From: Escherichia phage vB_Ec-G8 | Strand: one strand, 5' to 3' | Sequence record: PQ433350.1 | DNA: 45,511 nucleotides | In this document: positions 1 to 44,195 of the stretch, piece by piece | Position numbering within the stretch: position 1 is the first letter of the stretch | Layout: every line of letters begins with the position of its first letter | Translations under genes and position numbers: made by a program | The notes under the pieces: model-generated | The model's database searches: none | What the model was told of the DNA's origin: nothing | Seen by the model: only the letters and a program-made list of their open reading frames with translations

Positions 1-3
1 CAT

Positions 4-25
4 ACCCGCCTAGTGCGGGTTTTTT
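4..25 (+). terminator. Rho-independent terminator
   Basis: ACCCGC-ctagt-GCGGGT hairpin + T5. Confidence 0.6.
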
Positions 26-37
26 ATTTAGTGTAGA

Positions 38-3000
38 ATGGCACAAATGATCAAAACAAACATGAGGCTTTGTGATATGGCTGAAGAGATTAAGATTTAT
101 GGTGCCAAAGGCGGAAGCCAGAAGCAGCATCAACCAGTTGAGCAGGAAGATAACCTTATTTCACTTAACAAGGTTAAGGTGTTGCTTGCTGTAGCTGACG
201 GAGAGGTTGACCATAACTTCTCAATGAAGGATTTATACCTTGCTGACGTTCCCGTGCAAAACCAGGATGGTAGCTACAACTACGAAGGTGTTCGCGCTGA
301 GTTCCGCGCTGGTACGCAGTATCAGGATTATATCGCTGGCCTTGATGGTGCAAACTCAGAGATCCAGGCCTCCAGAGAAATCACGAACGACACCCCGTAC
401 ATCATTGCGGTTAACAATACTCAGCTATCAGCAATTCGTGTAAAGCTATACTGGCCTAGACTGGTTAAGCAAGAAAGCAATGGGGACCTGAACGGAACAA
501 CCTGCGAGTATGCAATTGACCTTTCTGTTAATGGTGGAGCATATCAGGAATACACTCGCGGAGTTGCTAACGGCAAGACAACTACAGGTTACGACCGCAG
601 CATTCGCGTGAACCTTCCTGCAGAGTTTGATAGCGCATTGGTTCGCATCCGTAAGATTACAGCAGATTCAACAAGTAGCACGCTGGTTAACGGAATGCAG
701 ATTACAACCTATCAGGAAGTAATAGACGCTAAATTCCGCTACCCGCTTACAGCACTTGTTTACGTTGAGTTCGGCTCTGACCTGTTCCCTAACGGAATTC
801 CAACAATCTCAATCAAGAAGCGATGGAAGTTAATTCAGGTCCCAACGAACTATGATCCTGAGACTAGAACCTACAGCGGCACGTGGAATGGCCTGTTCAA
901 GATGGCATGGTCAAACAACCCTGCGTGGGTTCTCTATGACTTGGTAACAAACCGCCGCTACGGCCTTGATCAGCGAGAGTTGGGTGTAGAAATTGATAAA
1001 TGGGGACTGTATGAAGCTGCGCAATTCTGCGACCAGATGGTGCCTGATGGTAAGGGTGGAATGGAACCGCGATATCTATGCGACATGGTTGTACAGAACA
1101 AGGTTGAGGCCTACACACTAATTCGTGACATTTGCTCAATCTTTCGTGGACTGACTTTCTATGATGGCGAAAAGATTGGTATCGTTGTTGATAAACCTCG
1201 CAATCCATCTTACATCTTCACTAATGATAACGTTGTAAACGGATTGTTCAGCCGCACTTTTGCCAGCGATAAAAGCCTTTACACTACGGCAAACGTTCAG
1301 TTTGATGATGTGGAGAACAACTATCAGCAGGATGTTGAGCCAGTATTTGAGCTCGAGGCTACTCGCCGATTTGGTTTTAACCCGGTCGACCTAACGGCAA
1401 TTGGATGTACGCGAAGAAGTGAAGCAAACAGACGCGGAAGATGGCTACTGAAAACCAACCTGAGAAGCGAAACTATCAGCTTCACTACCGGGTTGGAAGG
1501 CATGATTCCGATGATTGGTGAGGTGATTGCGGTCAATGACGCGGCATGGTCAAGCAACTATCAGTTAAACCTTTCTGGTCGCATTGAATCAGTTCAGGGA
1601 TTGCAGGTTTTCACCCCGTTTAAAGTTGACGCAGCGCCGGGTGACAGAATTCTTTTGAACAAGCCTGACGGAAGTCCGGAGGCAAGAACTATTGCCAGTG
1701 TTTCGGAAGATGGTAGAACAATCAACCTTAACACTGCCTTTAGCTTCGTCGCTCAACCTGATACTGTTTTTGCAATCGATAAGGATAACCTTGCTCTTCA
1801 GCAGTACGTTGTGACCGGGATTCAAAAGGCAGATACTGACGGCTCGGATTCATTCCAGTATACGATTACCGCCGTAGAGTATGACCCGAACAAGTATGAT
1901 GAGATTGACTACGGCGTTAACATCGTTGACCGCCCAACTTCAATTGTTGAGCCTGACAGATTGTCGCCACCAGAAAACCTGACCGCGTCAAGTTATAGTA
2001 AGGTTGTTCAAGGCTTATCAGTTGAGACGATGGTTATTGGATGGGATAAAGCGCCATACGCTAAAACATACAATGTTCAGTGGAGAAAAGAGAATGGCAA
2101 CTGGATTAACGTACCAAGAACAGCTAGCACAGAAGTTGATATTGAAGGTATTTACGCAGGAATCTATGACGTTAGGGTTCGCAGTGTATCAGATACTGAA
2201 AACGTGTCTGCCTGGTCTGGCATTGTAACTGTATCACTAACTGGCAAGATTGGTAGCCCATCGGCACCTACGGTTATAACGGCATCAACTGATGAAGTAT
2301 TTGGCATCCGTGTTAAATGGGGATTCCCTGAAGGATCTGGTGACACTGCTTACACTGAACTTCAGCAGGTTCCAGATAATGGTGATGGTACTTACAATCC
2401 TGATAACGCAAGTTTGCTGACGTTGCTTCCATACCCAGCCTATGAATACTGGCATACGCCAATTCAGCCAGGTAAGGTGATTTGGTATCGCGCAAGATTG
2501 ATTGACAGAATCGGGAACACATCTGATTGGTCTGATTTCGCCAGAGGCATGAGTACTGATGACGCCAACATTATCAATGATTACATCAAGGTTGATATTG
2601 AGAGCTCAGAGGGATTCAAATATCTCGAGCAGAATGCGATTCAAAAGAATCAGGACATTCAGAATCAAGCTGAGGCAATTATCGAGAACGCATTAGCTAA
2701 TGACACTGATGTGCGTCGTATGACTAAGGAGAACGGCAAACGTAAGGCCGAATATGTTCAGGCAGTGAATCTTATAGCTGATGAAACTCAGGCGCGTGTA
2801 GAAGCTCTTACGCAGCTTAAAGCGCAGATAGATGATGAAGTTGTAGCATCGATTACAGAAGTTCAGACAGCGCTAGCCACCGAGACAGAAGCAAGGACTA
2901 CTGCAGACACGGCTCTATCAGCAAGATTGGGTGATAACGAGGCGGCTCTAAGCCAGAAGTTAGACGCATTCTCCAATGCGACATCTACTGGCGTGCAATA

Positions 3001-3463
3001 CGGAATTAGTTTGGGTCTTAAATATAACGGCCAGACTTATTCATCTGGCATGAGCATGGAGCTTGTCGGCACTGGTGGAAATGTTCGTAGTCAATTCATT
3101 TTTGATGCAAACAGATTCGCAATCAGTAATGGAATTGGTTCTGGTTCTGGTCAGTGGCAACTCCCCTTCGTTGTCGAGAACGGAAACGTAATCATCCAAA
3201 GTGCAGTAATTGGTGATGGTTCAATCAGTAACGCGAAGATTGGTAACTTCATTCAGTCCAATAACTACGTAGCAGGAACCACAGGTTGGAGGATTGATAA
3301 GTCTGGAAGTGCAGAGCTAAGCAACGCCACTGTAAGAGGTAATCTTTACGCTAACAATGGTAACTTCGCATTCAACGGAACCAATAACACTGTTCAGATT
3401 AACAACAATGGAATTACGGTAAACTTACCGAACGGAGGTAGAGTTGTAGTTGGAGTGTGGTAA
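38..3463 (+). CDS. Tail tip / central tail fibre protein, lambda gpJ-like host specificity protein
   Basis: 1141-aa ORF; ATG at 38 directly after hairpin+T-run (4-25); gpJ-type conserved block (AWSNNPAWVLYDLVTNRRYGLDQ); follows the gpM/L/K/I-like genes at the window end when read circularly. Confidence 0.9.
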   Translation: MAQMIKTNMRLCDMAEEIKIYGAKGGSQKQHQPVEQEDNLISLNKVKVLLAVADGEVDHNFSMKDLYLADVPVQNQDGSYNYEGVRAEFRAGTQYQDYIAGLDGANSEIQASREITNDTPYIIAVNNTQLSAIRVKLYWPRLVKQESNGDLNGTTCEYAIDLSVNGGAYQEYTRGVANGKTTTGYDRSIRVNLPAEFDSALVRIRKITADSTSSTLVNGMQITTYQEVIDAKFRYPLTALVYVEFGSDLFPNGIPTISIKKRWKLIQVPTNYDPETRTYSGTWNGLFKMAWSNNPAWVLYDLVTNRRYGLDQRELGVEIDKWGLYEAAQFCDQMVPDGKGGMEPRYLCDMVVQNKVEAYTLIRDICSIFRGLTFYDGEKIGIVVDKPRNPSYIFTNDNVVNGLFSRTFASDKSLYTTANVQFDDVENNYQQDVEPVFELEATRRFGFNPVDLTAIGCTRRSEANRRGRWLLKTNLRSETISFTTGLEGMIPMIGEVIAVNDAAWSSNYQLNLSGRIESVQGLQVFTPFKVDAAPGDRILLNKPDGSPEARTIASVSEDGRTINLNTAFSFVAQPDTVFAIDKDNLALQQYVVTGIQKADTDGSDSFQYTITAVEYDPNKYDEIDYGVNIVDRPTSIVEPDRLSPPENLTASSYSKVVQGLSVETMVIGWDKAPYAKTYNVQWRKENGNWINVPRTASTEVDIEGIYAGIYDVRVRSVSDTENVSAWSGIVTVSLTGKIGSPSAPTVITASTDEVFGIRVKWGFPEGSGDTAYTELQQVPDNGDGTYNPDNASLLTLLPYPAYEYWHTPIQPGKVIWYRARLIDRIGNTSDWSDFARGMSTDDANIINDYIKVDIESSEGFKYLEQNAIQKNQDIQNQAEAIIENALANDTDVRRMTKENGKRKAEYVQAVNLIADETQARVEALTQLKAQIDDEVVASITEVQTALATETEARTTADTALSARLGDNEAALSQKLDAFSNATSTGVQYGISLGLKYNGQTYSSGMSMELVGTGGNVRSQFIFDANRFAISNGIGSGSGQWQLPFVVENGNVIIQSAVIGDGSISNAKIGNFIQSNNYVAGTTGWRIDKSGSAELSNATVRGNLYANNGNFAFNGTNNTVQINNNGITVNLPNGGRVVVGVW

Positions 3464-4767: not shown

Positions 4768-4787
4768 TTTAGCAATTAGTGCTATTT
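4768..4787 (-). promoter_or_regulatory. Boundary element copy (AATAGCAC-N5-TGCTAAA core), precedes cor
   Basis: Minus-oriented core; Rha TAG stop inside; leader ...CCACATCGAAACGAAACGAA then cor ATG. Confidence 0.6.
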
Positions 4788-5526: not shown

Positions 5527-5545
5527 TTTAGCAAATCGTGCTATT
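5527..5545 (-). promoter_or_regulatory. Boundary element copy, upstream of Rha-like gene
   Basis: Minus-oriented core AATAGCACGATTTGCTAAAG. Confidence 0.55.
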
Positions 5546-5626: not shown

Positions 5627-5895
5627 TACGCGATGTTACGCCAATTTACGCATTTGTTACATTAAAATATCTATATATATCAACCTTTTACTCTTATTAT
5701 TATTATTATATATATTACTGTGTATATCATGTAACTACTTCTATAGAGTGTTCCGGTTATAATTTTAATATCATGTGGATTTATACAGTATTGCGCGGCA
5801 GCTATACCAATGCACCATCAGCAATAAATGATATACACGATATACACACTGGTTACATTGAGCTATAGCTGGGCTGGAACACCATTTTACGTAAC
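5627..5895. repeat. Divergent control region A (homologous to 24666-24990)
   Basis: Colinear shared blocks 5646-5685, 5694-5733 (TTA microsatellite + GTGTATATCATGTA), 5863-5877 (CTATAGCTGGGCTGG); palindrome CGGTTACACGTAACCG at 5569-5584. Confidence 0.7.
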
Positions 5896-6229: not shown

Positions 6230-7195
6230 ATGAGCTTTAAAGTTTTTACGCGAGAGGAACTAAGCAACGAGGCTTACCACGCTGAAACTGATCACATCTC
6301 CGGTAGCTCACTTGTCGAGATTATCCAGGGCTCACCGGCTAAGTGGAAATTCAAACAGAGAAATAGCGATAGTAAGGCGCTTAAGTTTGGAACCCTAAGT
6401 CACACTATGATTTTGGAGCAAGATGTATTCGATAAAGAATACCTTCGAGAAACAGACTTTGATGCGATTGAGGGCTTAATTACAAGTCAAACAGGCTTAG
6501 CTTCAGCGCTTAAGAAAGTTGGTGTAGCTGGCGCGTCTGGGAAGGCCTATAGCGAGCTTGTGGAGATGATGTATCGATCTTCTGAGGATTGGCCTGTTAA
6601 GTGGCTAATTGAACAGCAGGAGAGCGCGCAGGCGCTTGTAGAGGGTAAGGAGCTAGTTAGCGCATCAGACTACGACAAGGTGGCGGCGATGCGTGAAGTT
6701 CTCTGCAACATTCCGGCATATAATGCAATTGTGAACAGCGAGACAGCGCAGAAAGAGCTATCAATCTTCGGTGAGATTCTGGGAGTTGGTGTTAAGATTC
6801 GAATTGACAACGTTGATGTTATTGATGGCGCTGTTCGGATCACAGATTATAAAACTACCGCAGACGCAAGCCCGGAAGGGTTCGGTAAATCGGCATTCTC
6901 GCACGGATACCTTGCAAAAATGGCGCTTCAGCGCGATCTTTTTGTGAAGGCATTTAACGAGAAGCGCAAGGTTGTTGTAGGCTTGCTGGCTCAGGAGAAA
7001 GTAGAGCCATATCTGCCAATGCTTTATACCTTGACGGACGAGCAGCTACGAATCGGTAGGTTGCAGTATCTTGAGGCGCTGGCTACTTACAAGAAGTGCA
7101 AGGAGCTGGATATTTGGCCTGGCTACTCGAATGGCATTACAGAGCAAGAGCTATTAGTTCCTGAGTGGGCGATTAAACAATATAGAGAGATATAA
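6230..7195 (+). CDS. PD-(D/E)xK recombination exonuclease (RecE/YqaJ/Cas4-like)
   Basis: 321 aa; D...D-Y-K nuclease motif (IRIDNVDVIDGAVRITDYKTT); AAGGA RBS; adjacent to Erf and SSB. Confidence 0.75.
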   Translation: MSFKVFTREELSNEAYHAETDHISGSSLVEIIQGSPAKWKFKQRNSDSKALKFGTLSHTMILEQDVFDKEYLRETDFDAIEGLITSQTGLASALKKVGVAGASGKAYSELVEMMYRSSEDWPVKWLIEQQESAQALVEGKELVSASDYDKVAAMREVLCNIPAYNAIVNSETAQKELSIFGEILGVGVKIRIDNVDVIDGAVRITDYKTTADASPEGFGKSAFSHGYLAKMALQRDLFVKAFNEKRKVVVGLLAQEKVEPYLPMLYTLTDEQLRIGRLQYLEALATYKKCKELDIWPGYSNGITEQELLVPEWAIKQYREI

Positions 7196-7196
7196 A

Positions 7197-7661
7197 ATGA
7201 ATAAAGATTGCTGGCAGACTCCTTTAGAGTTATTCAAACAAGTAGATGATAAATACAACTTCGAGGTTGACGTGTGCGCAAGTCCAGATAATGCTCTTTG
7301 TGAATATTTCTGGACTGAAGATGATGACTGCTTACAACAAGATTGGGGTGATGATTTCGGTTTCGTTTGGTGCAATCCTCCATATAGTAACCAACTTCCA
7401 TTTGTCGAAAAGTGCCAGCAATATGGTTATGCAGTCATGCTGTTGAATCAGGACACATCAACAAAATGGGCTAAGATAGTCTTTGAAAAGGCTTCAAAGG
7501 TTATACTCTTATCAGACAGGGTTAGGTTTATAAATCCATTAACATTGGAGGTTGGTAAGTCCAACCCCAAATGCCAGATGATCGTGATTTTCGACAAGAG
7601 AAGTAATTCTGGAGTTGATATACGTTGGTGCTCAATAAAAGAAATTCATAAGCACATATAA
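7197..7661 (+). CDS. dam: DNA N6-adenine methyltransferase (phage Dam type)
   Basis: 154 aa; motif IV NPPY (VWCNPPY) and N-terminal WQTP block typical of small phage Dam methylases. Confidence 0.85.
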   Translation: MNKDCWQTPLELFKQVDDKYNFEVDVCASPDNALCEYFWTEDDDCLQQDWGDDFGFVWCNPPYSNQLPFVEKCQQYGYAVMLLNQDTSTKWAKIVFEKASKVILLSDRVRFINPLTLEVGKSNPKCQMIVIFDKRSNSGVDIRWCSIKEIHKHI

Positions 7662-7680
7662 ATAGCACGAATCGCTAAAG
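7662..7680 (+). promoter_or_regulatory. Boundary element copy, between dam and erf
   Basis: TAA-ATAGCACGAATCGCTAAAG; downstream hairpin and CAACAACGAACGAGG leader. Confidence 0.6.
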
Positions 7681-7734: not shown

Positions 7735-8385
7735 ATGCAAATTTCAGATTCATGCAAGTCAATTTTAAACGCGCTACACACTGCTAAATCGCTATTTGCG
7801 AAGGCTGAAAAGTCAAAGCAGAACTCGCACCTTAAGAACAAATACGCCACCCTAGAAGACGTATTGGCGGCTGTTGAGCCAGGACTTGATGAGTGCGGTT
7901 TGGTTATGTTCCAGAGTGTCCTAGATGATGATCAAACAAACCGCATGAAGGTTGAGACAAAGCTTTTCCATGCGGAGTCAGGCGAATGGGTTAGCTTCTT
8001 AATGATTGTCCCAATCAGCAAGAATGATGCACAAGGTTACGGCTCAGCACTTACATACGCTAGACGTTACGGAATTACGGCAGCTTTAGGTCTCAGCCAG
8101 GCAGATGATGATGGAAATCTCGCAGCAAAAGGCGTCAAGGACTTTAAAAGAGAGCTTGAGAAGTGCAATACGCTCGATGAGCTTCGTAATGTATGGAAAG
8201 AGGCAAAGCAATCACTTGATGCGGCAGGATGGAAGGTTTTCGAACCACACATCATAGAGCGCAAGGCAGAGATTGAAACAAATGCAGCAACTGGCTTCAA
8301 CCCTGCTACACCTAAGAAAGTCGCAGAAAAAAGTAGTCCTGAAGAAAAGATTGAAGTAGAATCACAACAAATCGACACATTCTAA
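7735..8385 (+). CDS. erf: ERF-family single-strand annealing protein
   Basis: 216 aa; ERF signature region (GSALTYARRYGITAALG); GAGG RBS. Confidence 0.8.
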   Translation: MQISDSCKSILNALHTAKSLFAKAEKSKQNSHLKNKYATLEDVLAAVEPGLDECGLVMFQSVLDDDQTNRMKVETKLFHAESGEWVSFLMIVPISKNDAQGYGSALTYARRYGITAALGLSQADDDGNLAAKGVKDFKRELEKCNTLDELRNVWKEAKQSLDAAGWKVFEPHIIERKAEIETNAATGFNPATPKKVAEKSSPEEKIEVESQQIDTF

Positions 8386-8426: not shown

Positions 8427-8843
8427 ATGCACGTAATTACTGGTCAGATTCGCCGCGCTCCGTTCACCAAAGAAGGCGCAAACTCCAATGGTACATGGAA
8501 AATGTTTGCGGTTGATTTGAGTGAGAGACACAAAGATAAAGATGGTAAGACTCAGTATAGTAACTATCGCGCCGTCTTCTTTGCTAAAGAGTCAATGTTA
8601 GATTGGTACAACGAAGCATTTCAAGAGGGTAAAGTTGTTAGCGTTAGCGCAGAGACTCTTTCTGTTGATGTTCGTGATAAAGATGGCAAGACTTACGTAA
8701 CCATCAATATGAACAACCCGCGACTTGAATTTGGTCAGCGTGGTGATGCTGGAAGTCAGCAGCAGCAACAGCAGCAACAGCAACAGCAGAAGCAAAGACA
8801 ACCGCAGCAGCAACAGCAGTTTGATGACTCTATTCCATTCTAA
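8427..8843 (+). CDS. ssb: Single-stranded DNA-binding protein with poly-Gln linker
   Basis: 138 aa; OB-fold-like N-terminus; canonical acidic SSB tail DDSIPF; long poly-Q linker; followed by terminator. Confidence 0.85.
   Translation: MHVITGQIRRAPFTKEGANSNGTWKMFAVDLSERHKDKDGKTQYSNYRAVFFAKESMLDWYNEAFQEGKVVSVSAETLSVDVRDKDGKTYVTINMNNPRLEFGQRGDAGSQQQQQQQQQQQKQRQPQQQQQFDDSIPF
8757..8820 (+). repeat. CAG/CAA trinucleotide tract encoding the SSB poly-Gln linker
   Basis: About 20 consecutive Gln codons with Lys/Arg/Pro interruptions. Confidence 0.8.
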
Positions 8844-8849
8844 AGATAA

Positions 8850-8871
8850 GGCCCCTTTCGGGGCCTTTTTT
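8850..8871. terminator. Bidirectional intrinsic terminator (ssb / tail fibre convergence)
   Basis: GGCCCC-tttc-GGGGCC + T6. Confidence 0.75.
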
Positions 8872-11701
8872 ACGAAGCTGTATTTACCTGAAGATATGCA
8901 CCATTAGTTGCACCAAACCATGCGTAAGCAGATCCGTAAGCAGATCCGTAAGTTGTTGGGTTGTCATTTAAAATGAAATCACCCGCTCTAATTACGCACT
9001 TTGCTCCATATGTATCAGTGGGTCTTGCACTAAACCCATAATCAACATATCTAAAACCAACCTTCGTTACGTTATCGTTAAGCGGGAAGATCCTTAAGAA
9101 GCTGGAATCTCTAAAGTCATTGTTCCTGAAAATTCCTCCTGTAAAGTTATCCATATCAAACATTGTGGTTAAACTTGAGGCAACAGTATTCCTGAACTTG
9201 TTGCCTTCATATGTCGGAGCTACTACTTCATAGCCAACTCTTAGCTGAACAAACCCCCCATCAATAATATTGTCCTTGACTATTGGATATTGCCCGCCGA
9301 TTGCTAAGCCACCAAACCCAGGTGTAAATTTGCAACTATTATTACTAAATATAGTGCCAACCCACGCCTGATTTGTAAGGTATGGTGCCTTGGTGTCGGT
9401 CATGGTGTTTCCGGTGATAATCAATCCATTCTTAGCCTGGGTTCCCTCCTGGCAACCCTGAATCGCTACGCCTCCACCAATCATAATGTTGTCTGATATA
9501 AGAATGTTACTTAACCCATCATTAACACCCCAATCGCTTGATGCATCATTTGTTATCAGTAGGTAGTGAGAAGAAGCTCTACCAGTAGCGTCCGTACTTA
9601 TAATACTTGTATTGCCTTTGCATATAACATTGTTTGCCGCAAAAACCTCAACAAATATACCAGCACCTTCGTAGTAGTTATCCGTAACCGTTACGTTATT
9701 GCCAGCCGGGGTTATCCTTGACTGGATAGATATTGGATAATAGAACTTGTTGGCGTGAGCGTAAGACCTTCGGCTTCTCTCGGATATTGCATAATCCTCC
9801 GCGAAAGTATGCCATGCCCTTCCTGACTGTTTTGTTGTGTTTCCTATAAACTCTGAGTAGTCACAGTTTCTTGTGATTAAGCAGTAGTTAACGTTGTATC
9901 TGAAGCTTGAATTTCTAAGAGATACGAATGCATTAGGTAAGCCATTAAGAGCATCGGCATTAACAAAGGCCCTCGAGGCATTAACCTCCATACCCTCGAT
10001 CACAACTGATGCGCATCCTTCAACCATAAAACCAAACCAGTCTTCTCTTGGTTTATGCTCTGTATCCGTTGGTTGGATTGAGTAATCTGAAAAGTCACTA
10101 TTCCAGTTTAGGCCGCTAGCTTTAAGTGTGCAATTCTTTGCGCCGAAAACAACCCTCTCAGGTGATGAACTTCCAGATATATCGATCTCAACATCATTAT
10201 TGGCAAAAATATCAACATTAAGGCCATTAAGGAAGAATGCCGTCTTCCTTAATACGTTGTACTTATCATTGTACTGAATATCAGTGGAGAATGAGACCTT
10301 CAGTCTTCCTGCGCTAATCCTTACCTTCCTGTTTGTGTTGTGACCAAGATTTATACACGCCATCACTGATGCGTTTGATTCATTAACTCCAGAAACATCA
10401 TGCCCAGCCCACTCAGTATGGATATCATCGATCCCTCCTGTAAACCTAACCCAGCAACCATTCCCCCCTGGTGATGGCTCACCAACTCCTCCAAGGAAGT
10501 CTGAAAGCGTGGAATAAGTACCATCAAATGGAACCGTTGGGCTAAAAACAGTAATCCCGTTATGTTCGCTCTTACTTACTAACGGACTCCAGTAGAACAG
10601 ACCGCCACCAGAGTTTGCTCCAGAAATGTAAGACCTTACATTTGCTAAATTTTTATTCTCATTTGTTTGTTTGATTAGTTCGTAAATTGAATCAACTGAA
10701 GATAGTCCTAAATTGCTCCTGGCAAGGCTTTTATCTGCAACATCAGATAAATTCAATGATTTTTGAAAAGTCTCATTTTTTGAGTAAACATCAAGCAAGC
10801 CTCTTACTCGCTGGGCGCTAGCGCCGCCAACCCGACTTCCTGATGCGACATAAAGAGCCTCTCTTGAATAGTAAGTTTTGTTTGGTGCCGTGCCAGTCTG
10901 AGTTAAATCAATCACCCTGTACGTATTATCGGATCCGGTTGATGCTGACACTTGTATGTTCTTAACACCAGTAATCCCCCTTGCTGACTTAACCTCAATC
11001 GCACAAAGCGCGCTATCGGAGTAGGTTATATTTATCACCTCTGGAGCGTTGATCATTGCTGACTTTTGGCATAGGTATCTAGCTCCTGATTTGAAATCAA
11101 ACGTATTCCAGTCAAGTTCTGTCAACTGAGGTGTAAGCGAGCCACCGATACCCATATTGGCAAGAGTTACCATTGTGCCAGCATCACCAGCACTATTAAT
11201 TGCCTCAATAGTAGCATCTCTCGCTGATGTGGTTGTATCCCTTGCGCTAACGGCAGTAGCGGCGCTCTCTGCGGCAGCAATCTGGCTAGCTAAAGACTCG
11301 GCAGCCCCTGTTACTGATTGGTTTGCTAATTGCTCGAAGCGAGGCCAATCGAAATTATCTTGCCCGATAAATTGCAGCAAACTTTCAATAGAAGTCTCCT
11401 TTGACTGATAGTAACGCAGAGTCTCAGCAACATCCTGAGCTAAACCCTGAACGGTAATGCCATCGTGAGCAAGAATCGCGTAACCAGTTCCGGCAGGAAC
11501 AGTTTCAGAATTAGGGTTGTAAACATTAATCTGAGTGTCGCTGATGATTTCAGAGATGGTATAAATTTTAAGTGGACTGGTTTTAAAAATAATGGTTGCA
11601 CCTACACGAATCAGTGTAAGTGGTGCTTTCCATGTTGTCCCGACGCCAGTTACCTCGCCATTTGCGGATAGCGACGCTGTTCCCAAGTCATAAATTGCCA
11701 T
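8870..11701 (-). CDS. Tail fibre / tailspike with right-handed beta-helix (pectate-lyase-like) domain
   Basis: 943 aa from ATG 11701 (GGAG upstream; ORF-track start 11731 is GTG); N-terminal adaptor-like segment, Asn/Gly-rich repetitive beta-helix-like middle; boundary element immediately upstream. Confidence 0.8.
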   Translation of the reverse strand: MAIYDLGTASLSANGEVTGVGTTWKAPLTLIRVGATIIFKTSPLKIYTISEIISDTQINVYNPNSETVPAGTGYAILAHDGITVQGLAQDVAETLRYYQSKETSIESLLQFIGQDNFDWPRFEQLANQSVTGAAESLASQIAAAESAATAVSARDTTTSARDATIEAINSAGDAGTMVTLANMGIGGSLTPQLTELDWNTFDFKSGARYLCQKSAMINAPEVINITYSDSALCAIEVKSARGITGVKNIQVSASTGSDNTYRVIDLTQTGTAPNKTYYSREALYVASGSRVGGASAQRVRGLLDVYSKNETFQKSLNLSDVADKSLARSNLGLSSVDSIYELIKQTNENKNLANVRSYISGANSGGGLFYWSPLVSKSEHNGITVFSPTVPFDGTYSTLSDFLGGVGEPSPGGNGCWVRFTGGIDDIHTEWAGHDVSGVNESNASVMACINLGHNTNRKVRISAGRLKVSFSTDIQYNDKYNVLRKTAFFLNGLNVDIFANNDVEIDISGSSSPERVVFGAKNCTLKASGLNWNSDFSDYSIQPTDTEHKPREDWFGFMVEGCASVVIEGMEVNASRAFVNADALNGLPNAFVSLRNSSFRYNVNYCLITRNCDYSEFIGNTTKQSGRAWHTFAEDYAISERSRRSYAHANKFYYPISIQSRITPAGNNVTVTDNYYEGAGIFVEVFAANNVICKGNTSIISTDATGRASSHYLLITNDASSDWGVNDGLSNILISDNIMIGGGVAIQGCQEGTQAKNGLIITGNTMTDTKAPYLTNQAWVGTIFSNNSCKFTPGFGGLAIGGQYPIVKDNIIDGGFVQLRVGYEVVAPTYEGNKFRNTVASSLTTMFDMDNFTGGIFRNNDFRDSSFLRIFPLNDNVTKVGFRYVDYGFSARPTDTYGAKCVIRAGDFILNDNPTTYGSAYGSAYAWFGATNGAYLQVNTAS

Positions 11702-11724
11702 TGTGTAAAGTCTCCATTTGTAAA

Positions 11725-11742
11725 ATAGCACGAATTGCTAAG
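11725..11742. promoter_or_regulatory. Boundary element core upstream of tail fibre gene (orientation ambiguous)
   Basis: ATAGCACGAATTGCTAAG, 21 nt upstream of the minus-strand ATG 11701. Confidence 0.5.
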
Positions 11743-11766
11743 TTGGATTGTATCATCTTTCAGGCA

Positions 11767-11789
11767 TAAAAAAACCTCCCGAAGGAGGT
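11767..11789 (-). terminator. Intrinsic terminator after primase (minus strand)
   Basis: ACCTCC-cgaa-GGAGGT hairpin with A7 on plus (T-run on minus). Confidence 0.65.
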
Positions 11790-12712
11790 TAGTCTAGTAA
11801 TTCGCTTGCTTTGTATATTCGCTTTCTTATGCCTGACTTGAAAAAATTATCATCATTTGGCATTACCACATCAAGATTGCGATCGTCAGCAACAGCGAGT
11901 AAATCAAAATCGTGGCGAGTACAAGCGATGCGTAACTTGTAGTTTCTAAGCGCGTAGGCAACCATTTCCATGTTGTAGCTGGAGTGGCAAACAAGCACGC
12001 AGCGGTTGCCAGTAGCAAGATGAACGCGAACACCATCAATCCAATTATCGACCAGATAAGCGTACTCATCACTTTTAAGGGCACCAATAACAGCAATAGA
12101 CTGGCGAGTGTAATCTTTTGCAGCATAGCTAACATCCCCCTCCTCATTGATAAACATTACATTGCACATCTCATCGGACAACCCATCACTATAGGCCATA
12201 AAACACGGTATTGCGTGTATTAGTTCGCCTGACTTCGTCCTGCCAACATCAAAACCAAACTCGCTGTAAATACCCTCGTATATACTGAGAGGAGTTGATT
12301 CTACTCTTTCCGTCCTTTCCATTATCTCTAAGCATCTTTCGTGGTCAATCTGCGCGCCCATTTTGTATGGTGATGTTCTTGAAGCTCTTTTGTTTGCTTT
12401 TGATATAACCTCTACTGGAACTAGATTCAGCCAATCACCAAGCGTATCTATTGTTTCGCTATAACTCATTCCCGAGCATTTCATAACCCAGCCAACACCA
12501 GAATCGTTGCCGCACTGGTTACATATTGCTGCGCCATTTCCCTTTTCCTGACCTAACTCATCAGTGAAGCGAAACCTATCCTTGCCAAAGCAGTGGGGGC
12601 ACGGACCATGCTTCTTGCTGAGATTCTCCTTTGTCCATCCAAGGTGCGATGAGTAGAATTCGCCCCACATTCCACTCATTTTTGCTATCACTTCATTTTT
12701 ATCATGGTGCAT
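11789..12712 (-). CDS. DNA primase (zinc-ribbon + TOPRIM)
   Basis: 307 aa; Cys/His zinc-binding cluster (HGPCPHCFGKDRF...CNQCG) followed by a TOPRIM-like acidic core; minus-strand terminator right after the stop. Confidence 0.8.
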   Translation of the reverse strand: MHHDKNEVIAKMSGMWGEFYSSHLGWTKENLSKKHGPCPHCFGKDRFRFTDELGQEKGNGAAICNQCGNDSGVGWVMKCSGMSYSETIDTLGDWLNLVPVEVISKANKRASRTSPYKMGAQIDHERCLEIMERTERVESTPLSIYEGIYSEFGFDVGRTKSGELIHAIPCFMAYSDGLSDEMCNVMFINEEGDVSYAAKDYTRQSIAVIGALKSDEYAYLVDNWIDGVRVHLATGNRCVLVCHSSYNMEMVAYALRNYKLRIACTRHDFDLLAVADDRNLDVVMPNDDNFFKSGIRKRIYKASELLD

Positions 12713-12771: not shown

Positions 12772-13245
12772 TTACTCTTTAGCTTTTCGTGCTGCTTCGT
12801 TGGCTGCCTTAATTTTGCGCCATGAGCGACACTCTGGTTTAGTTGCTAGCTCAGCCTCAGTAACAACACGCAGCATATGACGCTTCTTGCAACGTAGAGT
12901 TAGCGGTTTCCCGTTACCGTCGAATTGCAGATCTGGTCGGCAGAATGTAGCGCGAAAACCTTCTCCATTTCGCTTATAGTAGTTGTGCGACAACTGAGCG
13001 CCGCGCGCAGAAATCATCCCACGCTTAAACCATTCTTCTACAGCCTGAGGTGTCACCTTTAACTGCTTTGCGATATTTGCCTTTGTGCCGAAGAAATCAA
13101 GAACAATCTCCAGTCGCGCACGTAAACCCGCCCTTACCTCATCTTTCAAAACGTAGTAACCTGAAGGTCGTTTACGTTGCTTCTTATCTTGTGTGCGGAC
13201 GGTCCCGTTATTGCCGTTAATTGTTCGCTTGTCAACTGCATTCAT
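12772..13245 (-). CDS. Putative HTH DNA-binding protein
   Basis: Basic protein with helix-turn-helix-like segment (NIAKQLKVTPQAVEEWFKRG); start placed at ATG 13245 with GAGGT SD rather than ORF-track start 13281. Confidence 0.55.
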   Translation of the reverse strand: MNAVDKRTINGNNGTVRTQDKKQRKRPSGYYVLKDEVRAGLRARLEIVLDFFGTKANIAKQLKVTPQAVEEWFKRGMISARGAQLSHNYYKRNGEGFRATFCRPDLQFDGNGKPLTLRCKKRHMLRVVTEAELATKPECRSWRKIKAANEAARKAKE

Positions 13246-13346
13246 TTCATTACCTCGATAGCATTTTTTGTTAAAAGTCATTCTGATTTGATAGTATTAT
13301 TGTACTCAATTAAACGCTACAAGACAATTTTTATAGGAATTTAGAT

Positions 13347-15342: not shown

Positions 15343-15762
15343 ATGCAAATTACAGACAAAGAAGATTACATTGAGTTTTACCCAGGCCCGGTTAAGTCAT
15401 GCCCGAAAGAGGATGACGAACAAATCTTTTGCTCTGATTGGGTTAAGTATAACTACCCGGAGATGGTATTTTTCCACTGCGTAAATGAGGGCAAGAAAAC
15501 CATTGGTCAAGCAAGAAAAGATCAGGCGAAGGGGTTGCTTAAGGGCGTATCAGACTGCTTATTCCTGATACCTGAATCGCTGCGAGGGAAATATCCTTTC
15601 GGGGCTATAGAGCTAAAGAGGGCTGGTAAAACTCAAGCAAGTCCAGTCAGCGAAGAACAGAAAGCATTTCTGAAAAGTGTAATGGAATCAGGCGGTTTCT
15701 CGGCAGTCGCCTACGGACGTGAGGGTTTTCTTGCAGCATTCAAAGAAATGATTTCAAAATAG
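15343..15762 (+). CDS. VRR-NUC domain nuclease
   Basis: 139 aa; PD-(D/E)xK-type motif (SDCLFLIP...GAIELKR); start overlaps the helicase stop; TAG stop inside a boundary element. Confidence 0.7.
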   Translation: MQITDKEDYIEFYPGPVKSCPKEDDEQIFCSDWVKYNYPEMVFFHCVNEGKKTIGQARKDQAKGLLKGVSDCLFLIPESLRGKYPFGAIELKRAGKTQASPVSEEQKAFLKSVMESGGFSAVAYGREGFLAAFKEMISK

Positions 15763-15777
15763 CACGAATTGCTAAAG
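15759..15777 (+). promoter_or_regulatory. Boundary element copy, precedes 15839 ORF
   Basis: ATAGCACGAATTGCTAAAG with upstream TAG stop inside. Confidence 0.6.
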
Positions 15778-22543: not shown

Positions 22544-22562
22544 TTATCAATTTGTGCTATTT
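22544..22562 (-). promoter_or_regulatory. Boundary element variant, precedes P-loop ATPase gene
   Basis: Minus-strand AAATAGCACAAATTGATAA followed by TGaTATAAT extended -10. Confidence 0.6.
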
Positions 22563-22973: not shown

Positions 22974-22993
22974 TTTAGCAATTAGTGCTATTT
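22974..22993 (-). promoter_or_regulatory. Boundary element copy, precedes 22911 ORF
   Basis: Minus-strand AAATAGCACTAATTGCTAAA + hairpin + TCATCGAAACGAAAC leader. Confidence 0.6.
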
Positions 22994-23282: not shown

Positions 23283-23301
23283 TTTAGCAATTCGTGCTAT
23301 T
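23283..23301 (-). promoter_or_regulatory. Boundary element copy, precedes 23230 ORF
   Basis: Minus-strand AATAGCACGAATTGCTAAA; upstream ORF stops at the internal TAA. Confidence 0.6.
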
Positions 23302-24459: not shown

Positions 24460-24478
24460 TTTAGCAAAAAGTGCTATT
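24460..24478 (-). promoter_or_regulatory. Boundary element copy at the leftward edge of control region B
   Basis: Minus-strand AATAGCACTTTTTGCTAAAG. Confidence 0.55.
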
Positions 24479-24665: not shown

Positions 24666-24990
24666 CGTATACGCGTTATAAAAGTTATGCCTTGTAGATG
24701 ATGCCACCCTCCGTAGGAATCGTGTACGCCTATAACGCTGAATTACGCAATGGTTACACTATAATATCTATACATAACAACCATTTAGTAGTATTATTAT
24801 TATTATATATATTACTATGTATATCATGTATATCCCCCTTGCGGGGAGGGTCGATAGTTTTTCTATGAAAATGACATTTTCTATATATATAAGGATAGGT
24901 ATATACCCTCCGCGTTTTCCGCGGAAATTAATCTACAGGCAAATTACATGCACTATAGCTGGGCTGAGGTGGCAAAAAACGTAACCAGGG
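24666..24990. repeat. Divergent control region B (homologous to 5627-5895)
   Basis: Shared blocks 24743-24782, 24794-24830, 24953-24966; extra hairpins (CCCC-ttgc-GGGG; CCGCG-ttttc-CGCGG). Confidence 0.7.
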
Positions 24991-26201: not shown

Positions 26202-26219
26202 ATAGCACGAATTGCTAAA
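26202..26219 (+). promoter_or_regulatory. Boundary element copy, precedes 26287 ORF
   Basis: TGA-ATAGCACGAATTGCTAAA; TGaTATAGT extended -10 downstream. Confidence 0.6.
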
Positions 26220-26286: not shown

Positions 26287-26469
26287 ATGCAAGTTTATAA
26301 ATCACCTGGCGGCGCTCGTTACGTTGTTGTTGATGGCAGGGTGTACTGCAAGCCGCTAACCGGATTCACATTTCGCTCGTCAATGACGGTGGATCGATAC
26401 CTTGAGTTGATAGGTTGGGGATTTCTTAGGTTTGAAAAGGTAATCAAGCCTATAATGACCGTCAAATAG
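26287..26469 (+). CDS. Hypothetical protein (60 aa)
   Basis: ORF between two element copies; weak RBS. Confidence 0.45.
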   Translation: MQVYKSPGGARYVVVDGRVYCKPLTGFTFRSSMTVDRYLELIGWGFLRFEKVIKPIMTVK

Positions 26470-26484
26470 CACGAATTGTTAAAA
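26466..26484 (+). promoter_or_regulatory. Boundary element variant
   Basis: ATAGCACGAATTGTTAAAA; leader CCACACATCAACCACAAG. Confidence 0.5.
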
Positions 26485-26661: not shown

Positions 26662-26925
26662 ATGAGTAAGTACAACCGTGAGATTATCGGCCTGGATGGG
26701 GAAGTAACCACAGTGGATGTATATCGAGTCCTGGATGCATTCCAGGTAACAGACCCAGCTATACAGCACGCAATCAAGAAGATGCTGTGCACTGGACTTA
26801 GAGGGCATAAGGACTATCTTACTGACATTGAAGACTCCATTGAATCACTGCAAAAAGCCAGGGAACTTTACGATCAGCGCAAGAGTTACGAGCGGCGATA
26901 CAATTTATCTTTTACAGATAAATAG
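26662..26925 (+). CDS. Hypothetical protein (87 aa)
   Basis: CGAGGA RBS; TAG stop lies inside an element. Confidence 0.5.
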   Translation: MSKYNREIIGLDGEVTTVDVYRVLDAFQVTDPAIQHAIKKMLCTGLRGHKDYLTDIEDSIESLQKARELYDQRKSYERRYNLSFTDK

Positions 26926-26939
26926 CACGAATTGCTAAA
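26922..26939 (+). promoter_or_regulatory. Boundary element copy, precedes 26995 ORF
   Basis: ATAGCACGAATTGCTAAA, hairpin, TGtTATAGT extended -10, CACACCAAACGAGAGG. Confidence 0.65.
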
Positions 26940-27359: not shown

Positions 27360-27378
27360 ATAGCACGAATTGCTAAAG
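27360..27378 (+). promoter_or_regulatory. Boundary element copy, precedes 27434 ORF
   Basis: TAA-ATAGCACGAATTGCTAAAG, TGtTATAGT, CCACATCAAAACTAACGAGG. Confidence 0.65.
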
Positions 27379-27433: not shown

Positions 27434-27538
27434 ATGAGTGAATTAATTAAAACTATCGCGGACTATCCATTTGCTTCGCTTTTTCTTGCTCTTGCAATAT
27501 ATGAAATTGTAAAGATTATTGTCAAATGTATTAAATAG
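27434..27538 (+). CDS. Putative 34-aa membrane peptide
   Basis: Hydrophobic core FASLFLALAIYEIVKIIV; bounded by elements on both sides. Confidence 0.3.
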   Translation: MSELIKTIADYPFASLFLALAIYEIVKIIVKCIK

Positions 27539-27553
27539 CACTAATTTCTAAAA
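27535..27553 (+). promoter_or_regulatory. Boundary element variant, precedes 27609 ORF
   Basis: ATAGCACTAATTTCTAAAA, TGcTATAGT, CCACATCAAAACGAAACAGG. Confidence 0.6.
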
Positions 27554-28121: not shown

Positions 28122-28261
28122 GCTTCATTGAATACGCAATTGCATGTGAACGACTGGTCTTTGATATGAAGACCTTCCACTGGTTCATCATCAAGGATTT
28201 AATCAAGCCGTACAAGCAAGGTGTTACGCCAGAGGCTTTTGTTAAGTCATTCTATAAATAG
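28118..28261 (+). CDS. Hypothetical small protein (47 aa)
   Basis: ATGA-coupled; TAG stop inside an element. Confidence 0.35.
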   Translation: MSFIEYAIACERLVFDMKTFHWFIIKDLIKPYKQGVTPEAFVKSFYK

Positions 28262-28275
28262 CACGAATTGCTAAA
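28258..28275 (+). promoter_or_regulatory. Boundary element copy, precedes 28332 ORF
   Basis: ATAGCACGAATTGCTAAA, GCCA-tgga-TGGC hairpin, TATAAT, CCACATCAACACAACGAGAG. Confidence 0.65.
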
Positions 28276-29841: not shown

Positions 29842-31407
29842 ATGTCTTTAGTATGGGAAGAAATGACCATTCAGGAAAAGATGGCTGTTAAGGCGATATC
29901 AGAACACAGCTTCGAGGGTTTCCTTCGTTGCTGGTTCCAGATTACACAAGGCGAACGATACATCCCTAACTGGCATCACAAGTACTTGTGCAGAATCATT
30001 GACGAGATTATTGCAGGCGAAAGAAAGGACACCATTATCAACATAGCACCAGGCAGCGGAAAGACGGAAATTGCCTCAATCCACTTCCCGGCCTATTCGA
30101 TGGTTAAGCTTAGGAAGGTGCGCAACCTTAACATCTCTTTTGCTGACTCCCTGGTTAAGCGTAACTCGAAGCGAGTGCGTGACCTTATCAAGTCTCAAGA
30201 ATTTCAGTCACTCTGGCCATGCAAGTTTGGCACTTGCAAAGACGATGAGCTTCAGGTTCTTGATGAGAGTGGCAAGGTTAGATTTGAGTCAATATCAAAG
30301 GCGGCTGGAGGCCAGATTACTGGCGCTCGCGGTGGGTACATAACCGAAACATACAGCGGAGCCGTTCTTTTGGATGACTTTGACAAACCCGCAGATATGT
30401 TATCAGCAGTGTACCGCTCGAATAATCACGTAATGCTTAAAAATACGATTCGCTCACGTCGAGCCAGTTCTGTAAAAGGCAAAGCGACACCAATCATTTC
30501 GATACAGCAGCGGCTTCACGTCAATGACTCAACCTGGTTCATGATGGAGGGGGGTATGGGTATCGACTTTGACTTGGTTAAGATACCGGCTCTGGTTACT
30601 GAGGATTACATCGACTCGCTCCCTGACTGGATTAAAGATCAGTTTGCTGAGGACGTACTAAGCAGCGAATATATTGAGCGAGATGGCGTAAAGTACTACA
30701 GCTACTTTCCTAAAAAGGAATCCGTAAACGACCTGGTGGCAATGTGGGATAGCGACCCCTACACTTTCCTCAGCCAGTATCAGCAGGAGCCAGTAGCGCT
30801 GGGTGGCAACCTAATTAACGTGGACTGGTTCCAGCGAATCAGTGATACGTTCAGACCTCCAGCTAAGTACGACTATCGATTCATAACTTGCGATACCGCA
30901 ATGACCACTAAAAGTTACAGCGACTTCTCTGTTCTTCAGTTGTGGGGCTATAAAGATGCTAAGATTTACCTTATTGATCAGCGCAGGGGTAAATGGGAGG
31001 CCCCAGAGTTGGAGGCTGAACTGCTGGACTTCGAGAAGAAATCAAGGGCAACCAGTCAGTCAGATGGTATCCTCAGAAAGATTATTATCGAGAAGAAAGC
31101 GTCTGGTATCGGCCTGATTCAATCAGCTGGCAGGGTTATGCGAACACCGATAGAGCCATACGTACCGGATAATGACAAGCTAACCAGGGTGATGAGTGCA
31201 CTACCACAGATTAAGGCTGGTAACGTAGTTCTTCCAGAGTCATCGCCGTGGCTAAACGGATTGCTCACTGAGGTTGCGGCTTTTACGGCAGATGACTCGC
31301 ATAAGCACGACGACCAAATTGACTGTCTAACAATGGCGGTAAACCTTGTGCTTAACATCGCGGATGATCCTAAGGCGAGACTGATGCGCATAGCGGGAAT
31401 GAAATAG
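29842..31407 (+). CDS. Terminase large subunit
   Basis: 521 aa; N-terminal ATPase with Walker A (APGSGKT), C-terminal nuclease-like acidic residues; TAG stop inside an element. Confidence 0.9.
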   Translation: MSLVWEEMTIQEKMAVKAISEHSFEGFLRCWFQITQGERYIPNWHHKYLCRIIDEIIAGERKDTIINIAPGSGKTEIASIHFPAYSMVKLRKVRNLNISFADSLVKRNSKRVRDLIKSQEFQSLWPCKFGTCKDDELQVLDESGKVRFESISKAAGGQITGARGGYITETYSGAVLLDDFDKPADMLSAVYRSNNHVMLKNTIRSRRASSVKGKATPIISIQQRLHVNDSTWFMMEGGMGIDFDLVKIPALVTEDYIDSLPDWIKDQFAEDVLSSEYIERDGVKYYSYFPKKESVNDLVAMWDSDPYTFLSQYQQEPVALGGNLINVDWFQRISDTFRPPAKYDYRFITCDTAMTTKSYSDFSVLQLWGYKDAKIYLIDQRRGKWEAPELEAELLDFEKKSRATSQSDGILRKIIIEKKASGIGLIQSAGRVMRTPIEPYVPDNDKLTRVMSALPQIKAGNVVLPESSPWLNGLLTEVAAFTADDSHKHDDQIDCLTMAVNLVLNIADDPKARLMRIAGMK

Positions 31408-31421
31408 CACAAATTGCTAAA
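31404..31421 (+). promoter_or_regulatory. Boundary element copy inside late operon, precedes moron 31477
   Basis: ATAGCACAAATTGCTAAA, GCCA-cgga-TGGC, TATAGT, TTCACACAAAAGAGAGGAG. Confidence 0.65.
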
Positions 31422-38509: not shown

Positions 38510-38528
38510 ATAGCACTTTTTGCTAAAG
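38510..38528 (+). promoter_or_regulatory. Boundary element copy inside tail operon, precedes moron 38587
   Basis: ATAGCACTTTTTGCTAAAG, TGTATAGT, CTCATCGAAAAGAAATGAGAG. Confidence 0.65.
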
Positions 38529-42523: not shown

Positions 42524-42553
42524 TTAACGGGGCCTCGGCCCCTAAGGATTTTT

Positions 42554-42904
42554 ATGGCTATTGATACTTTTAATTACTGCACTCAAGTCCAAAATGGAGG
42601 CGGCTCATTCTCTAACACTAACAACGTGCGAATTGTTAGCTTCGGCAATGGTTACGAGCAGCGTGGGACTGGCGGTTATCGAAGTAACAAGCGAAGCTAC
42701 CAGATGACTTACACAAACAAGGACTGGCGGGAGGTGATGGAATTTTGCTTTAACCACATCATTACCCCGTTCTTCTGGACTACGCCGCATGGTGACACAT
42801 CAATGTTTGTGATTCAGCAAGATAGCATTAGCGTCACGCCACTCAGTAAGGAAGTTCAGACTGTAAACATGCAATTCGTGGAAGTCTTTAGCTCAATGCG
42901 TTAA
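42554..42904 (+). CDS. Minor tail protein (lambda gpM-like)
   Basis: 116 aa; position between tape measure and gpL-like gene. Confidence 0.75.
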   Translation: MAIDTFNYCTQVQNGGGSFSNTNNVRIVSFGNGYEQRGTGGYRSNKRSYQMTYTNKDWREVMEFCFNHIITPFFWTTPHGDTSMFVIQQDSISVTPLSKEVQTVNMQFVEVFSSMR

Positions 42905-42908
42905 ACTA

Positions 42909-42930
42909 AGCCCCATTAGGGGCTTTTTTA
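42909..42930 (+). terminator. Terminator-RBS module before gpL
   Basis: AGCCCC-atta-GGGGCT + T6 then ATTGGAGA. Confidence 0.7.
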
Positions 42931-42942
42931 TTGGAGAAATAT

Positions 42943-43698: not shown

Positions 43699-43717
43699 AT
43701 AGCACTTTTTGCTAAAG
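43699..43717 (+). promoter_or_regulatory. Boundary element copy inside tail operon, precedes moron 43772
   Basis: TAA-ATAGCACTTTTTGCTAAAG, hairpin, TATAGT, CTCACACAAACGAGAGG. Confidence 0.65.
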
Positions 43718-43771
43718 ACGAACAGCAAAGGATGGCGTATAGTTACCTCACACAAACGAGAGGATATAAAA

Positions 43772-44137
43772 ATGTTCTACATTGAATTCAACGGATACAA
43801 AAAAGACAAAGAAGAGTGCGGTGGTTTATTTTCTGTTGGTAAAACTTACGCATGTGATGTTGTTGACTCAGGTGTTTACTATCAGGTTATGGATGATGAA
43901 GGTAAAGCTGTAAAATTTAGAAGCATGTTTTATGATAATTATTACAGCTTTTCACGAGTTGAACATAATGAGGTGGAGGTCAATTTGTTAAGTGATACAA
44001 ATGATGGCAAGATGAAATATAGAATGAATGGTATTGATGTTACTAAGTCATTCTTTGATGAAAAACTGATTGAGGCTGAGGGGCTTAAATCCAAGGGTGT
44101 TTCAGTGCTTATAGATTTTGAGGTTTATTTTGAATAA
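43772..44137 (+). CDS. Hypothetical moron protein (121 aa), paralog of 31477-31809
   Basis: ATG 43772 preceded by full element + leader (CACACAAACGAGAGGATATAAAA); terminator downstream. Confidence 0.5.
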   Translation: MFYIEFNGYKKDKEECGGLFSVGKTYACDVVDSGVYYQVMDDEGKAVKFRSMFYDNYYSFSRVEHNEVEVNLLSDTNDGKMKYRMNGIDVTKSFFDEKLIEAEGLKSKGVSVLIDFEVYFE

Positions 44138-44156
44138 ACTAAATTAGTGTTAAACT

Positions 44157-44184: not shown

Positions 44185-44195
44185 TTGGAGATAAA

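Follow-up and report, generated by a model that had tools for sequence, protein, structure and literature searches.

Why does a coliphage carry a large gene of tail fibre type among its recombination and replication genes, away from its tail module and on the opposite strand? We examined this question in Escherichia phage vB_Ec-G8 (PQ433350.1), a 45,511-nucleotide (nt) stretch of DNA hereafter called the window, where an initial annotation had assigned positions 8870-11701 to a 943-amino-acid (aa) protein and read it as a beta-helix lateral fibre or a polysaccharide-degrading spike. Our analysis indicates with high confidence that the 943-aa protein is the lateral tail fibre, in a 'tailspike' form, of a T1-like siphovirus (Drexlerviridae, Braunvirinae), and that it has a conserved N-terminus, an exchangeable internal cassette and a distal domain that is predicted to be a beta-helix and is probably enzymatic.

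The fibre gene is met by converging plus-strand genes for a PDDEXK exonuclease (6230-7195), a Dam methylase (7197-7661), Erf (7735-8385) and SSB (8427-8843), while on its upstream side lie a primase (11789-12712) and a Cro-like regulator (12772-13281) on the minus strand, followed by a plus-strand helicase. Recombination genes on one side and primase, regulator and helicase on the other mark the Drexlerviridae lateral-fibre locus, described as lying between conserved recombination and primase/helicase genes, with conservation of the main fibre gene confined to its far 5' end (PMC8594841). The tail module is on the plus strand (tape measure 39545-42523, minor tail proteins to 45507, gpJ central fibre 38-3463), and gpJ is ~5.4 kb away, which confirms the placement originally described: outside the tail module, on the opposite strand and flanked by recombination and replication genes. 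Over its full length the product matches PHROG 24092 ('tail fiber protein'; E=0), a homology search returned 865 homologues, and 'tail fiber protein' is annotated at the identical position in CEB_EC3a and ACG-M12 (both Drexlerviridae, Braunvirinae, Guelphvirus).

The list of open reading frames (ORFs) extends this frame to 8870..11731 on the minus strand, with a GTG start and 953 aa. We preferred ATG 11701, as the initial annotation had done, and ruled out GTG 11731 because a ribosome-binding site (GGAG, 11712-11715) is found only before the ATG and because all homologues of the fibre begin with MAIYD, as does the 943-aa product (MAIYDLG...).

Module borders within the fibre were set by homology searches and sliding identity profiles (Table 1). 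The N-terminal anchor domain, presumed to be the tail attachment site, is 66-100% identical even among fibres with other stems or distal domains. Residues 1-181 match the N-termini of DpK2 (7LZJ) and Depo32 (7VYV, 7VZ3) with E ~1e-34, the anchor part corresponding to their aa 1-102, and the ~340 N-terminal aa are common to hundreds of fibres that carry PF12708, PF13229, PF13884 or no domain distally. The fibre therefore has the conserved far N-terminus and hypervariable remainder by which Drexlerviridae lateral fibres are recognised. The Ala-rich segment behind the anchor is probably a trimeric coiled-coil shaft; its counterpart in DpK2 is described as a triple-helical bundle (PMC8552709).

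The exchangeable beta-rich cassette is 90-98% identical to that of ECH1 and ACG-M12 and 10-50% identical to those of CEB_EC3a, P0011 and P0013, despite flanks at 90-100%, and in P0016-18 and phiEB49 gp24 the stretch is replaced by sequence that includes a PF18668 domain. It is the sole part of the full-length AlphaFold2 (AF2) model with a predicted local distance difference test (pLDDT) of 70-87. The cassette had no Pfam match and no significant sequence match in the PDB, and Foldseek with the full-length model, run to identify it, gave weak beta-helix matches only. A resemblance to a single leaf of ThreeFoil, a beta-trefoil lectin (E=0.038), was rejected as insignificant, no stretch being significant alone. 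At the border with the distal domain, NLSDVADKSLARSNLGL fits the '..NL.D(V/L).N...AR.NLGL' unit that recurs in a short tail fibre of solved structure (9zd7). Homology to P22-like and PF18668-type spikes starts precisely at aa 331-332, within the 'ARSNLGL' junction, which is likely to be a recombination joint.

The distal domain was modelled separately (aa 331-943; AF2 on a 57-sequence alignment reaching down to 33% identity) with a pLDDT of 86.1 and a predicted template modelling score (pTM) of 0.86. Its core is confidently predicted to be a right-handed parallel beta-helix, the fold of tailspikes and depolymerases, so the beta-helix proposed from composition was recovered by structure prediction. 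Structural neighbours of the model were AlgE4 (27.8), the cyanophage Pam1 spike (26.5), GH110 (26.4), K1 lyase (25.7), the HK620 tailspike (24.5), CBA120 TSP3 (23.6), CBA120 TSP2 (23.1) and Depo32 (22.1); most of the top neighbours are glycan-active enzymes or enzymatic tailspikes. Ten residues are invariant across homologues at 33-94% identity (D479, E515, E553, D583, E635, E685, R516, R628, H631, H712), and from this conservation the acidic ones, together with R516, R628, H631 and H712, are candidate active-site residues. From fold and conserved residues, the distal domain is probably enzymatic.

The pectate-lyase likeness suggested by the initial annotation survives at the level of fold only: the hidden Markov models (HMMs) of the pectate lyase families PF12708 (Pectate_lyase_3) and PF13229 (Beta_helix) did not match the protein. 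More generally, no family of the Pfam copy scanned, which seems not to contain PF27114, was found at E<=1 for the full protein or the distal domain; Pfam scans of the N-terminal and middle parts and an NCBIfam scan of the whole protein gave no match either. A PDB profile search with alignment A2 returned only N-terminal adaptor domains of other family members and a weak GH110 segment (E=0.012). The fibre lacks a match to the C-terminal S74 chaperone (Peptidase_S74, PF13884) that other Drexlerviridae fibres at this locus have; many other fibres of the locus also have beta-helix domains. Proteins 85-93% identical to the fibre have a precomputed match to PF27114 (Phage_tail_beta), and by this similarity the fibre very likely belongs to that family.

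An exhaustive HMMER scan of 1.84 billion representatives found 18 clusters (50% identity) at E<=1e-30, most spanning the helix body and a few being short fragments. The cap ahead of the beta-helix, which reads GGGLFYW...HNGITVFSPTVP..., is common to several hundred further clusters, including nearly all matches listed beyond the top ~20, and ~530 distant proteins have this region alone in common with the fibre. Since the cap occurs in several hundred clusters and the helix body in ~18, the cap is a separately mobile or slower-evolving sub-module. At least three kinds of anchor, possibly four, precede matching distal domains: the Drexlerviridae fibre N-terminus, the P22 head-binding domain, a PF18668-type or TSP1/gp66-type N-terminal domain (including a Citrobacter siphovirus 'tail spike' with a PF18668-type anchor) and, weakly, a T7-type domain.

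One of these homologues is P0020, a Salmonella prophage tailspike with a PF09008 anchor (E=1.5e-63) and a distal domain 62% identical to that of the fibre. Its gene lies in a P22-like prophage after gp7, gp20 and gp16 and adjoins gtrABC and an integrase. The same slot in characterised P22-like phages (P22, Sf6, HK620) holds O-antigen-specific endoglycosidase tailspikes. Host data of closer relatives point to a particular O-antigen: phiEB49 (72% identical) is a transducing phage for CFT073 and grows on it, and UALMA_PCEc3 has ATCC 25922 as isolation host, both strains being of serogroup O6. ACG-M12, with a distal domain 91% identical, lysed 4/4 O6:H1 uropathogenic E. coli (UPEC) strains, CFT073 and 4/6 rough strains (PMC3347319). 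From the O6:H1 and rough lysis by ACG-M12 and the P22-type homologue beside gtrABC, we infer that an O-antigen is most likely the target of the distal domain; because of the host data of ACG-M12, phiEB49 and UALMA_PCEc3, the E. coli O6 antigen is the leading, if still tentative, candidate substrate. If the substrate is O6, a hydrolase would be expected over a lyase, since the O6 repeat is not known to contain uronic acid.

We hypothesize that the fibre protein trimerises, that its N-terminal ~125 aa dock to the tail, and that the Ala-rich coiled coil projects outward, with the beta cassette and the 'ARSNLGL' joint leading to the 613-aa distal domain built around the beta-helix. This domain would bind a host surface polysaccharide, most likely O-antigen, and probably cleave it as an endoglycosidase through the conserved carboxylates. 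Reversible primary adsorption and passage through the O-antigen layer could follow, after which the gpJ central fibre and its associated receptor-binding locus would reach an outer-membrane protein and trigger DNA ejection. The fibre would thus be dispensable on rough strains and decide which O-types can be infected among smooth ones, making it a second determinant of host range, with module swapping as its mode of evolution.

Several observations weigh against this interpretation. Full-length AF2 (24-sequence alignment) reached a pLDDT of only 49 and was not used for fold claims. The sequence matches no characterised glycoside hydrolase or lyase family, so the case for catalysis comes down to fold and conserved residues. 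Drexlerviridae lateral fibres are described as probable binders of O-antigen, which would be a non-essential primary receptor (PMC8594841; also PMC13164509), but the O-antigen role 'has never been directly demonstrated' (PMC8594841). Spot tests of ACG-M12 were also positive on some O14, O18ac, O25:H1 and O135 strains, and an O6:H25 strain was missed (PMC3347319), which blurs the O6 specificity. When the distal-domain DNA was compared by blastn with 5,426 complete E. coli genomes, in the hope that prophages would reveal the target serotype, no match was obtained, and we found no experiment on the fibre protein or on other proteins of its distal-domain family. For E. coli O6 and Salmonella O40 (the O-type of serovar Johannesburg, in which the closest prophage spike resides), a literature search turned up no usable structural link.

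Other readings of the gene were weighed against the same evidence. The beta-helix might recognise a surface glycan without catalysis, adhesin-like, as some beta-helix proteins do; we regard this as improbable given that the top structural neighbours are mostly enzymes or enzymatic tailspikes, that the D/E/R/H set stays invariant down to 33% identity, and that the 62%-identical homologue occupies a P22-like tailspike slot whose characterised occupants are endoglycosidases. Slightly more improbable again is a depolymerase for capsule or another exopolysaccharide (K antigen, colanic acid, enterobacterial common antigen) in place of O-antigen. The solved proteins that share the N-terminal anchor, DpK2 and Depo32, are indeed Klebsiella siphovirus K2 capsule depolymerases, and UPEC hosts such as CFT073 are encapsulated; yet the closest non-Drexlerviridae homologue is the P22-like prophage tailspike alongside the gtrABC O-antigen modification genes, ACG-M12 sensitivity tracks O6:H1 and rough strains and not any stated K type (PMC3347319), and the family literature gives O-antigen as the fibre target (PMC8594841, PMC13164509).

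Position among early genes could also suit a soluble depolymerase released at lysis and not a virion protein, as the gene sits in the replication/recombination block, downstream of the primase and co-directional with it, and is not preceded by the standard promoter element of structural genes. We consider this very improbable indeed: in hundreds of Drexlerviridae fibres whose distal domains are unrelated, conservation is highest in the N-terminal 125 aa, the pattern of an attachment domain; the homologous DpK2 fits the virion tail appendages of RAD2; and fibre alleles with T5-like tips are found at the identical locus. A virion-attached lateral fibre with a glycan-targeting distal spike is thus the reading that we retain, and it is the one first suggested for this gene, now with PHROG and syntenic homology, the DpK2/Depo32 anchor and the predicted beta-helix in its favour.

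Table 1. Coordinates of the fibre gene, its modules and nearby putative expression signals in the window.
Feature	Position	Strand	Basis or remark
Lateral tail fibre / tailspike gene (probable)	8870..11701	-	943 codons + TAA stop (8870-8872); ORF list, PHROG 24092, synteny
N-terminal anchor domain, aa 1-125	11327..11701	-	columns of alignment A1 almost invariant
Ala-rich helical segment, aa 126-183	11153..11326	-	helices 119-128, 133-170, 174-183 in low-confidence full-length model
Exchangeable internal beta-rich cassette, aa 184-300	10802..11152	-	identity profile
Fibre junction motif NLSDVADKSLARSNLGL, aa 317-333	10703..10753	-	at border with distal domain
Distal domain (putatively receptor-binding), aa 331-943 (613 aa)	8873..10711	-	
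Cap, ~aa 355-470	~10292-10639	-	
Predicted beta-helix, ~aa 465-860	9122-10309	-	
C-terminal small beta domain, aa 861-943		-	
GC-rich hairpin AAGGCCCC-TTTC-GGGGCCTT	8848..8867	.	between converging SSB and fibre genes; -16.3 / -16.8 kcal/mol on the two strands
Terminator-like hairpin + T7 run	11773..11790	-	primase gene end; terminator scan, -10.9 kcal/mol
TGATACAAT, extended -10-like box	11747..11755	-	read from sequence
Palindromic element copy, ATAGCAC GAATT GCTAA	11725..11741	+	inverted relative to fibre gene; between -10-like box and ribosome-binding site

Whether the fibre evolves apart from the rest of the phage can be judged from its relatives. By sequence comparison the window is a Guelphvirus-like T1-like coliphage (Drexlerviridae, Braunvirinae). 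DNA of the fibre region is 89-90% identical to UALMA_PCEc3, CEB_EC3a, ACG-M12, SCS31 and ECH1, and the backbone is nearest to BEK1-1 and the vB_EcoS-12xxx Veterinaerplatzvirus set (~85% identity over 75-79%). The isolates closest in backbone are thus not those closest in fibre, and because BEK1-1 and vB_EcoS-12xxx have just the flanks and the 5' portion of the fibre gene in common with this region (47% coverage), the distal part of the gene has an evolutionary history of its own. A metagenomic Drexlerviridae genome conserves the locus and carries a matching distal domain on a different stem. Identity profiles along the fibre are mosaic, with the distal part swapped independently of the backbone. 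In the comparison of C-terminal domains that the initial annotation had recommended, identity to the Guelphvirus fibres was 91-93% and to P0020 62%. These patterns support the earlier proposal of a second, independent host-range determinant, which agrees with the family model because recognition of the terminal receptor belongs to gpJ and its downstream locus.

ACG-M12 gp31 (YP_006987866), ECH1 and CEB_EC3a gp40 (YP_009789340) resemble the window in locus (SSB -> <- fibre <- primase), length (936-939 aa) and three-module plan, with 85-90% aa identity overall and 91-93% in the distal domain. The cassette of the window is of the ACG-M12 and not the CEB_EC3a type. Neither gene type, locus nor presumed role is new, since annotations of close relatives and published descriptions of the family already give them; novelty is at the level of the allele, whose best match anywhere is 93% and which differs from Guelphvirus fibres by a 4-aa YGSA duplication near the C-terminus. 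The duplication arises from a 12-nt tandem repeat at 8927-8950 (-), giving YGSAYGSA at aa 918-925, where the compared homologues P0016 and P0020 have a single YGSA (or YGSP).

The BASEL locus (Maffei et al. 2021, PMC8594841) agrees with the window in placement, N-terminal conservation and hypervariable remainder, but in its example, JakobBernoulli, the fibre is a coiled coil that carries a T5-like tip and an intramolecular chaperone domain, whereas the fibre studied here has a predicted beta-helix spike and no such chaperone was found in it. Because its allele ends in such a spike, it resembles Klebsiella webervirus depolymerases. DpK2 (RAD2) and Depo32 (GH-K3) have the N-terminal anchor in common with it; their distal domains are unrelated to it in sequence, their substrate is K2 capsule, and the window fibre has neither the beta-sandwich nor the helical bundle found at their C-terminus. 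DpK2 is a trimer whose size fits the tail appendages of RAD2 virions (PMC8552709). P22-family tailspikes, like P0020, have the P22 head-binding anchor (PF09008) and belong to podoviruses, in contrast to the Drexlerviridae fibre N-terminus seen here, and no sequence similarity to the P22 gp9, HK620 or Sf6 tailspikes was detectable.

The lateral fibre of T5 (pb1/LtfA) is a functional analogue: siphovirus side fibres on O-antigen speed adsorption and are dispensable on rough hosts (PMC8594841), and T5, as in our model, uses a separate protein for the outer-membrane receptor. Unlike the fibre described here, that of T5 is long and non-enzymatic, has a chaperone-processed tip and comes from another place in a genome of 120 kb. 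In micrographs of ACG-M12, 1-2 short terminal fibres are visible, and a literature search for cryo-electron microscopy or other virion evidence of Drexlerviridae side fibres found nothing direct. A 124-kDa 'tail fiber' detected by mass spectrometry in O157 T1-like phages was set aside as a side fibre candidate; by mass only, it is probably gpJ.

Points of note in this locus are the PF27114-type distal domain with a plausible O6 target, the independently swapping cassette and an inverted regulatory palindrome. The PF27114-type domain, which has been moved between three anchor types or possibly four, forms a small family in which no structure is solved and no member characterised. It may be an endoglycosidase that is specific for O6 and represents a new specificity class, although we consider this somewhat unlikely when taken jointly with the regulatory role of the palindrome considered below. 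O6 is a major UPEC serogroup, and a candidate O6-specific spike could be used for typing, enzymatic O-antigen stripping and phage retargeting, with the module borders (anchor, cassette, ARSNLGL joint, beta-helix) as joining points for chimeric fibres. An allele with a plausible defined target is also a convenient test case for the hypothesis that T1-like side fibres recognise O-antigen.

Downstream of the fibre gene, the GC-rich hairpin between the SSB and fibre genes appears from its sequence to be a bidirectional terminator, and terminators are annotated on both strands at the homologous CEB_EC3a site. Upstream, the order on the fibre strand (5' to 3') is primase stop, hairpin with T7 run (11790-11773), TGATACAAT (11755-11747), palindrome TTAGCAATTCGTGCTAT (11741-11725), GGAG and ATG, an arrangement kept in four phages of two genera. 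The hairpin with its T7 run is identical in the four, and a terminator is annotated at the homologous CEB_EC3a site. The -10-like box, a candidate promoter of the fibre gene by sequence, is retained in four relatives as TGnTACAAT with n variable. Neither the TGATACAAT-type motif alone in the window (2 found vs 2.2 expected) nor sigma-70 consensus matches around the fibre gene (10 found vs 10.6 expected) were enriched, and the sigma-70 scan therefore neither supports nor excludes a promoter.

The palindrome belongs to a recurrent element, ATAGCAC-N5-GCTAA, present in the window in 18 copies against 0.34 expected: 4769-4785(-), 5528-5544(-), 7662-7678, 11725-11741, 15759-15775, 22544-22560(-), 22975-22991(-), 23284-23300(-), 24461-24477(-), 26202-26218, 26466-26482, 26922-26938, 27360-27376, 27535-27551, 28258-28274, 31404-31420, 38510-38526 and 43699-43715. 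The fuller form is AAATAGCAC-N5-GCTAAA. Apart from the fibre copy, the other 17 are intergenic and aimed at the next gene, with TATAnT(TAC) ~20 nt on, often followed by CATCGAAACGA. Given this spacing the dyad, TAGCA-N5-TGCTA, is centred ~30 nt 5' of the -10 box, near -42, which is too distant for a sigma-70 -35 box and would be typical of a class II activator-like site. The element looks like a phage-specific promoter class with a site for a dimeric factor, and a candidate for the protein that binds the dyad is the Cro-like product of 12772-13281; the motif string was not found in the literature searched.

The initial annotation had credited the fibre gene with its own element-type upstream region. 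A copy is indeed present, but 11725-11741 is the only one oriented against its gene and lacks the TATAnT boxes of the other 17. On the plus strand it is followed by CATAAA (TATAAA in CEB_EC3a), made by the A-run of the primase terminator. The fibre gene may therefore be expressed by read-through from the primase operon, or from the -10-like box with the palindrome as operator, or the element may fire antisense into the primase. That the inverted palindrome is an operator timing fibre expression or a weak antisense promoter into the primase carries, together with the new enzyme class raised above, the same somewhat low likelihood.

Neighbouring genes show further differences among relatives. 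The Dam-type N6-adenine methyltransferase gene at 7197-7661 (+; PF05869, E=6e-39) sits between the exonuclease and Erf genes and is not present at the homologous position of CEB_EC3a, which has an HNH endonuclease between primase and regulator that is not present in the window; in ACG-M12 the SSB and fibre genes are separated by an endonuclease gene, likewise not present in the window. The presence and absence of these genes is small mobile-gene turnover near the fibre locus. In the SSB, poly-Q (Q11 K Q R Q P Q5) stands just ahead of the acidic FDDSIPF tail and comes from a CAG/CAA repeat at 8757-8816 (+); ACG-M12, SCS31 and ECH1 do not align over the SSB gene.

At the level of the genome, the tail module leaves the window at its right end and resumes at the left (1-3463 and 39545-45511), running from the tape measure to the tail assembly protein and then gpJ, so the window is a circularly permuted, probably complete genome of ~45.5 kb. 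With a backbone only ~85% identical over 75-79% to the nearest isolates, the phage is likely a new species by sequence. A ~90% match to the fibre locus also occurs in GenBank PP134917.1, 'Pseudomonas phage PsgS01F' (listed host P. syringae pv. garcae); this record has 44,679 bp, equal to the coliphage UALMA_PCEc3, and the P. syringae host attribution looks doubtful. Finally, a 96-nt AT-rich direct repeat (5638-5733 and 24735-24830, 85% identical) lies in gene-poor, promoter-rich surroundings, each copy with a (TTA)n/(TA)n tract, and might be a regulatory or origin-like region.

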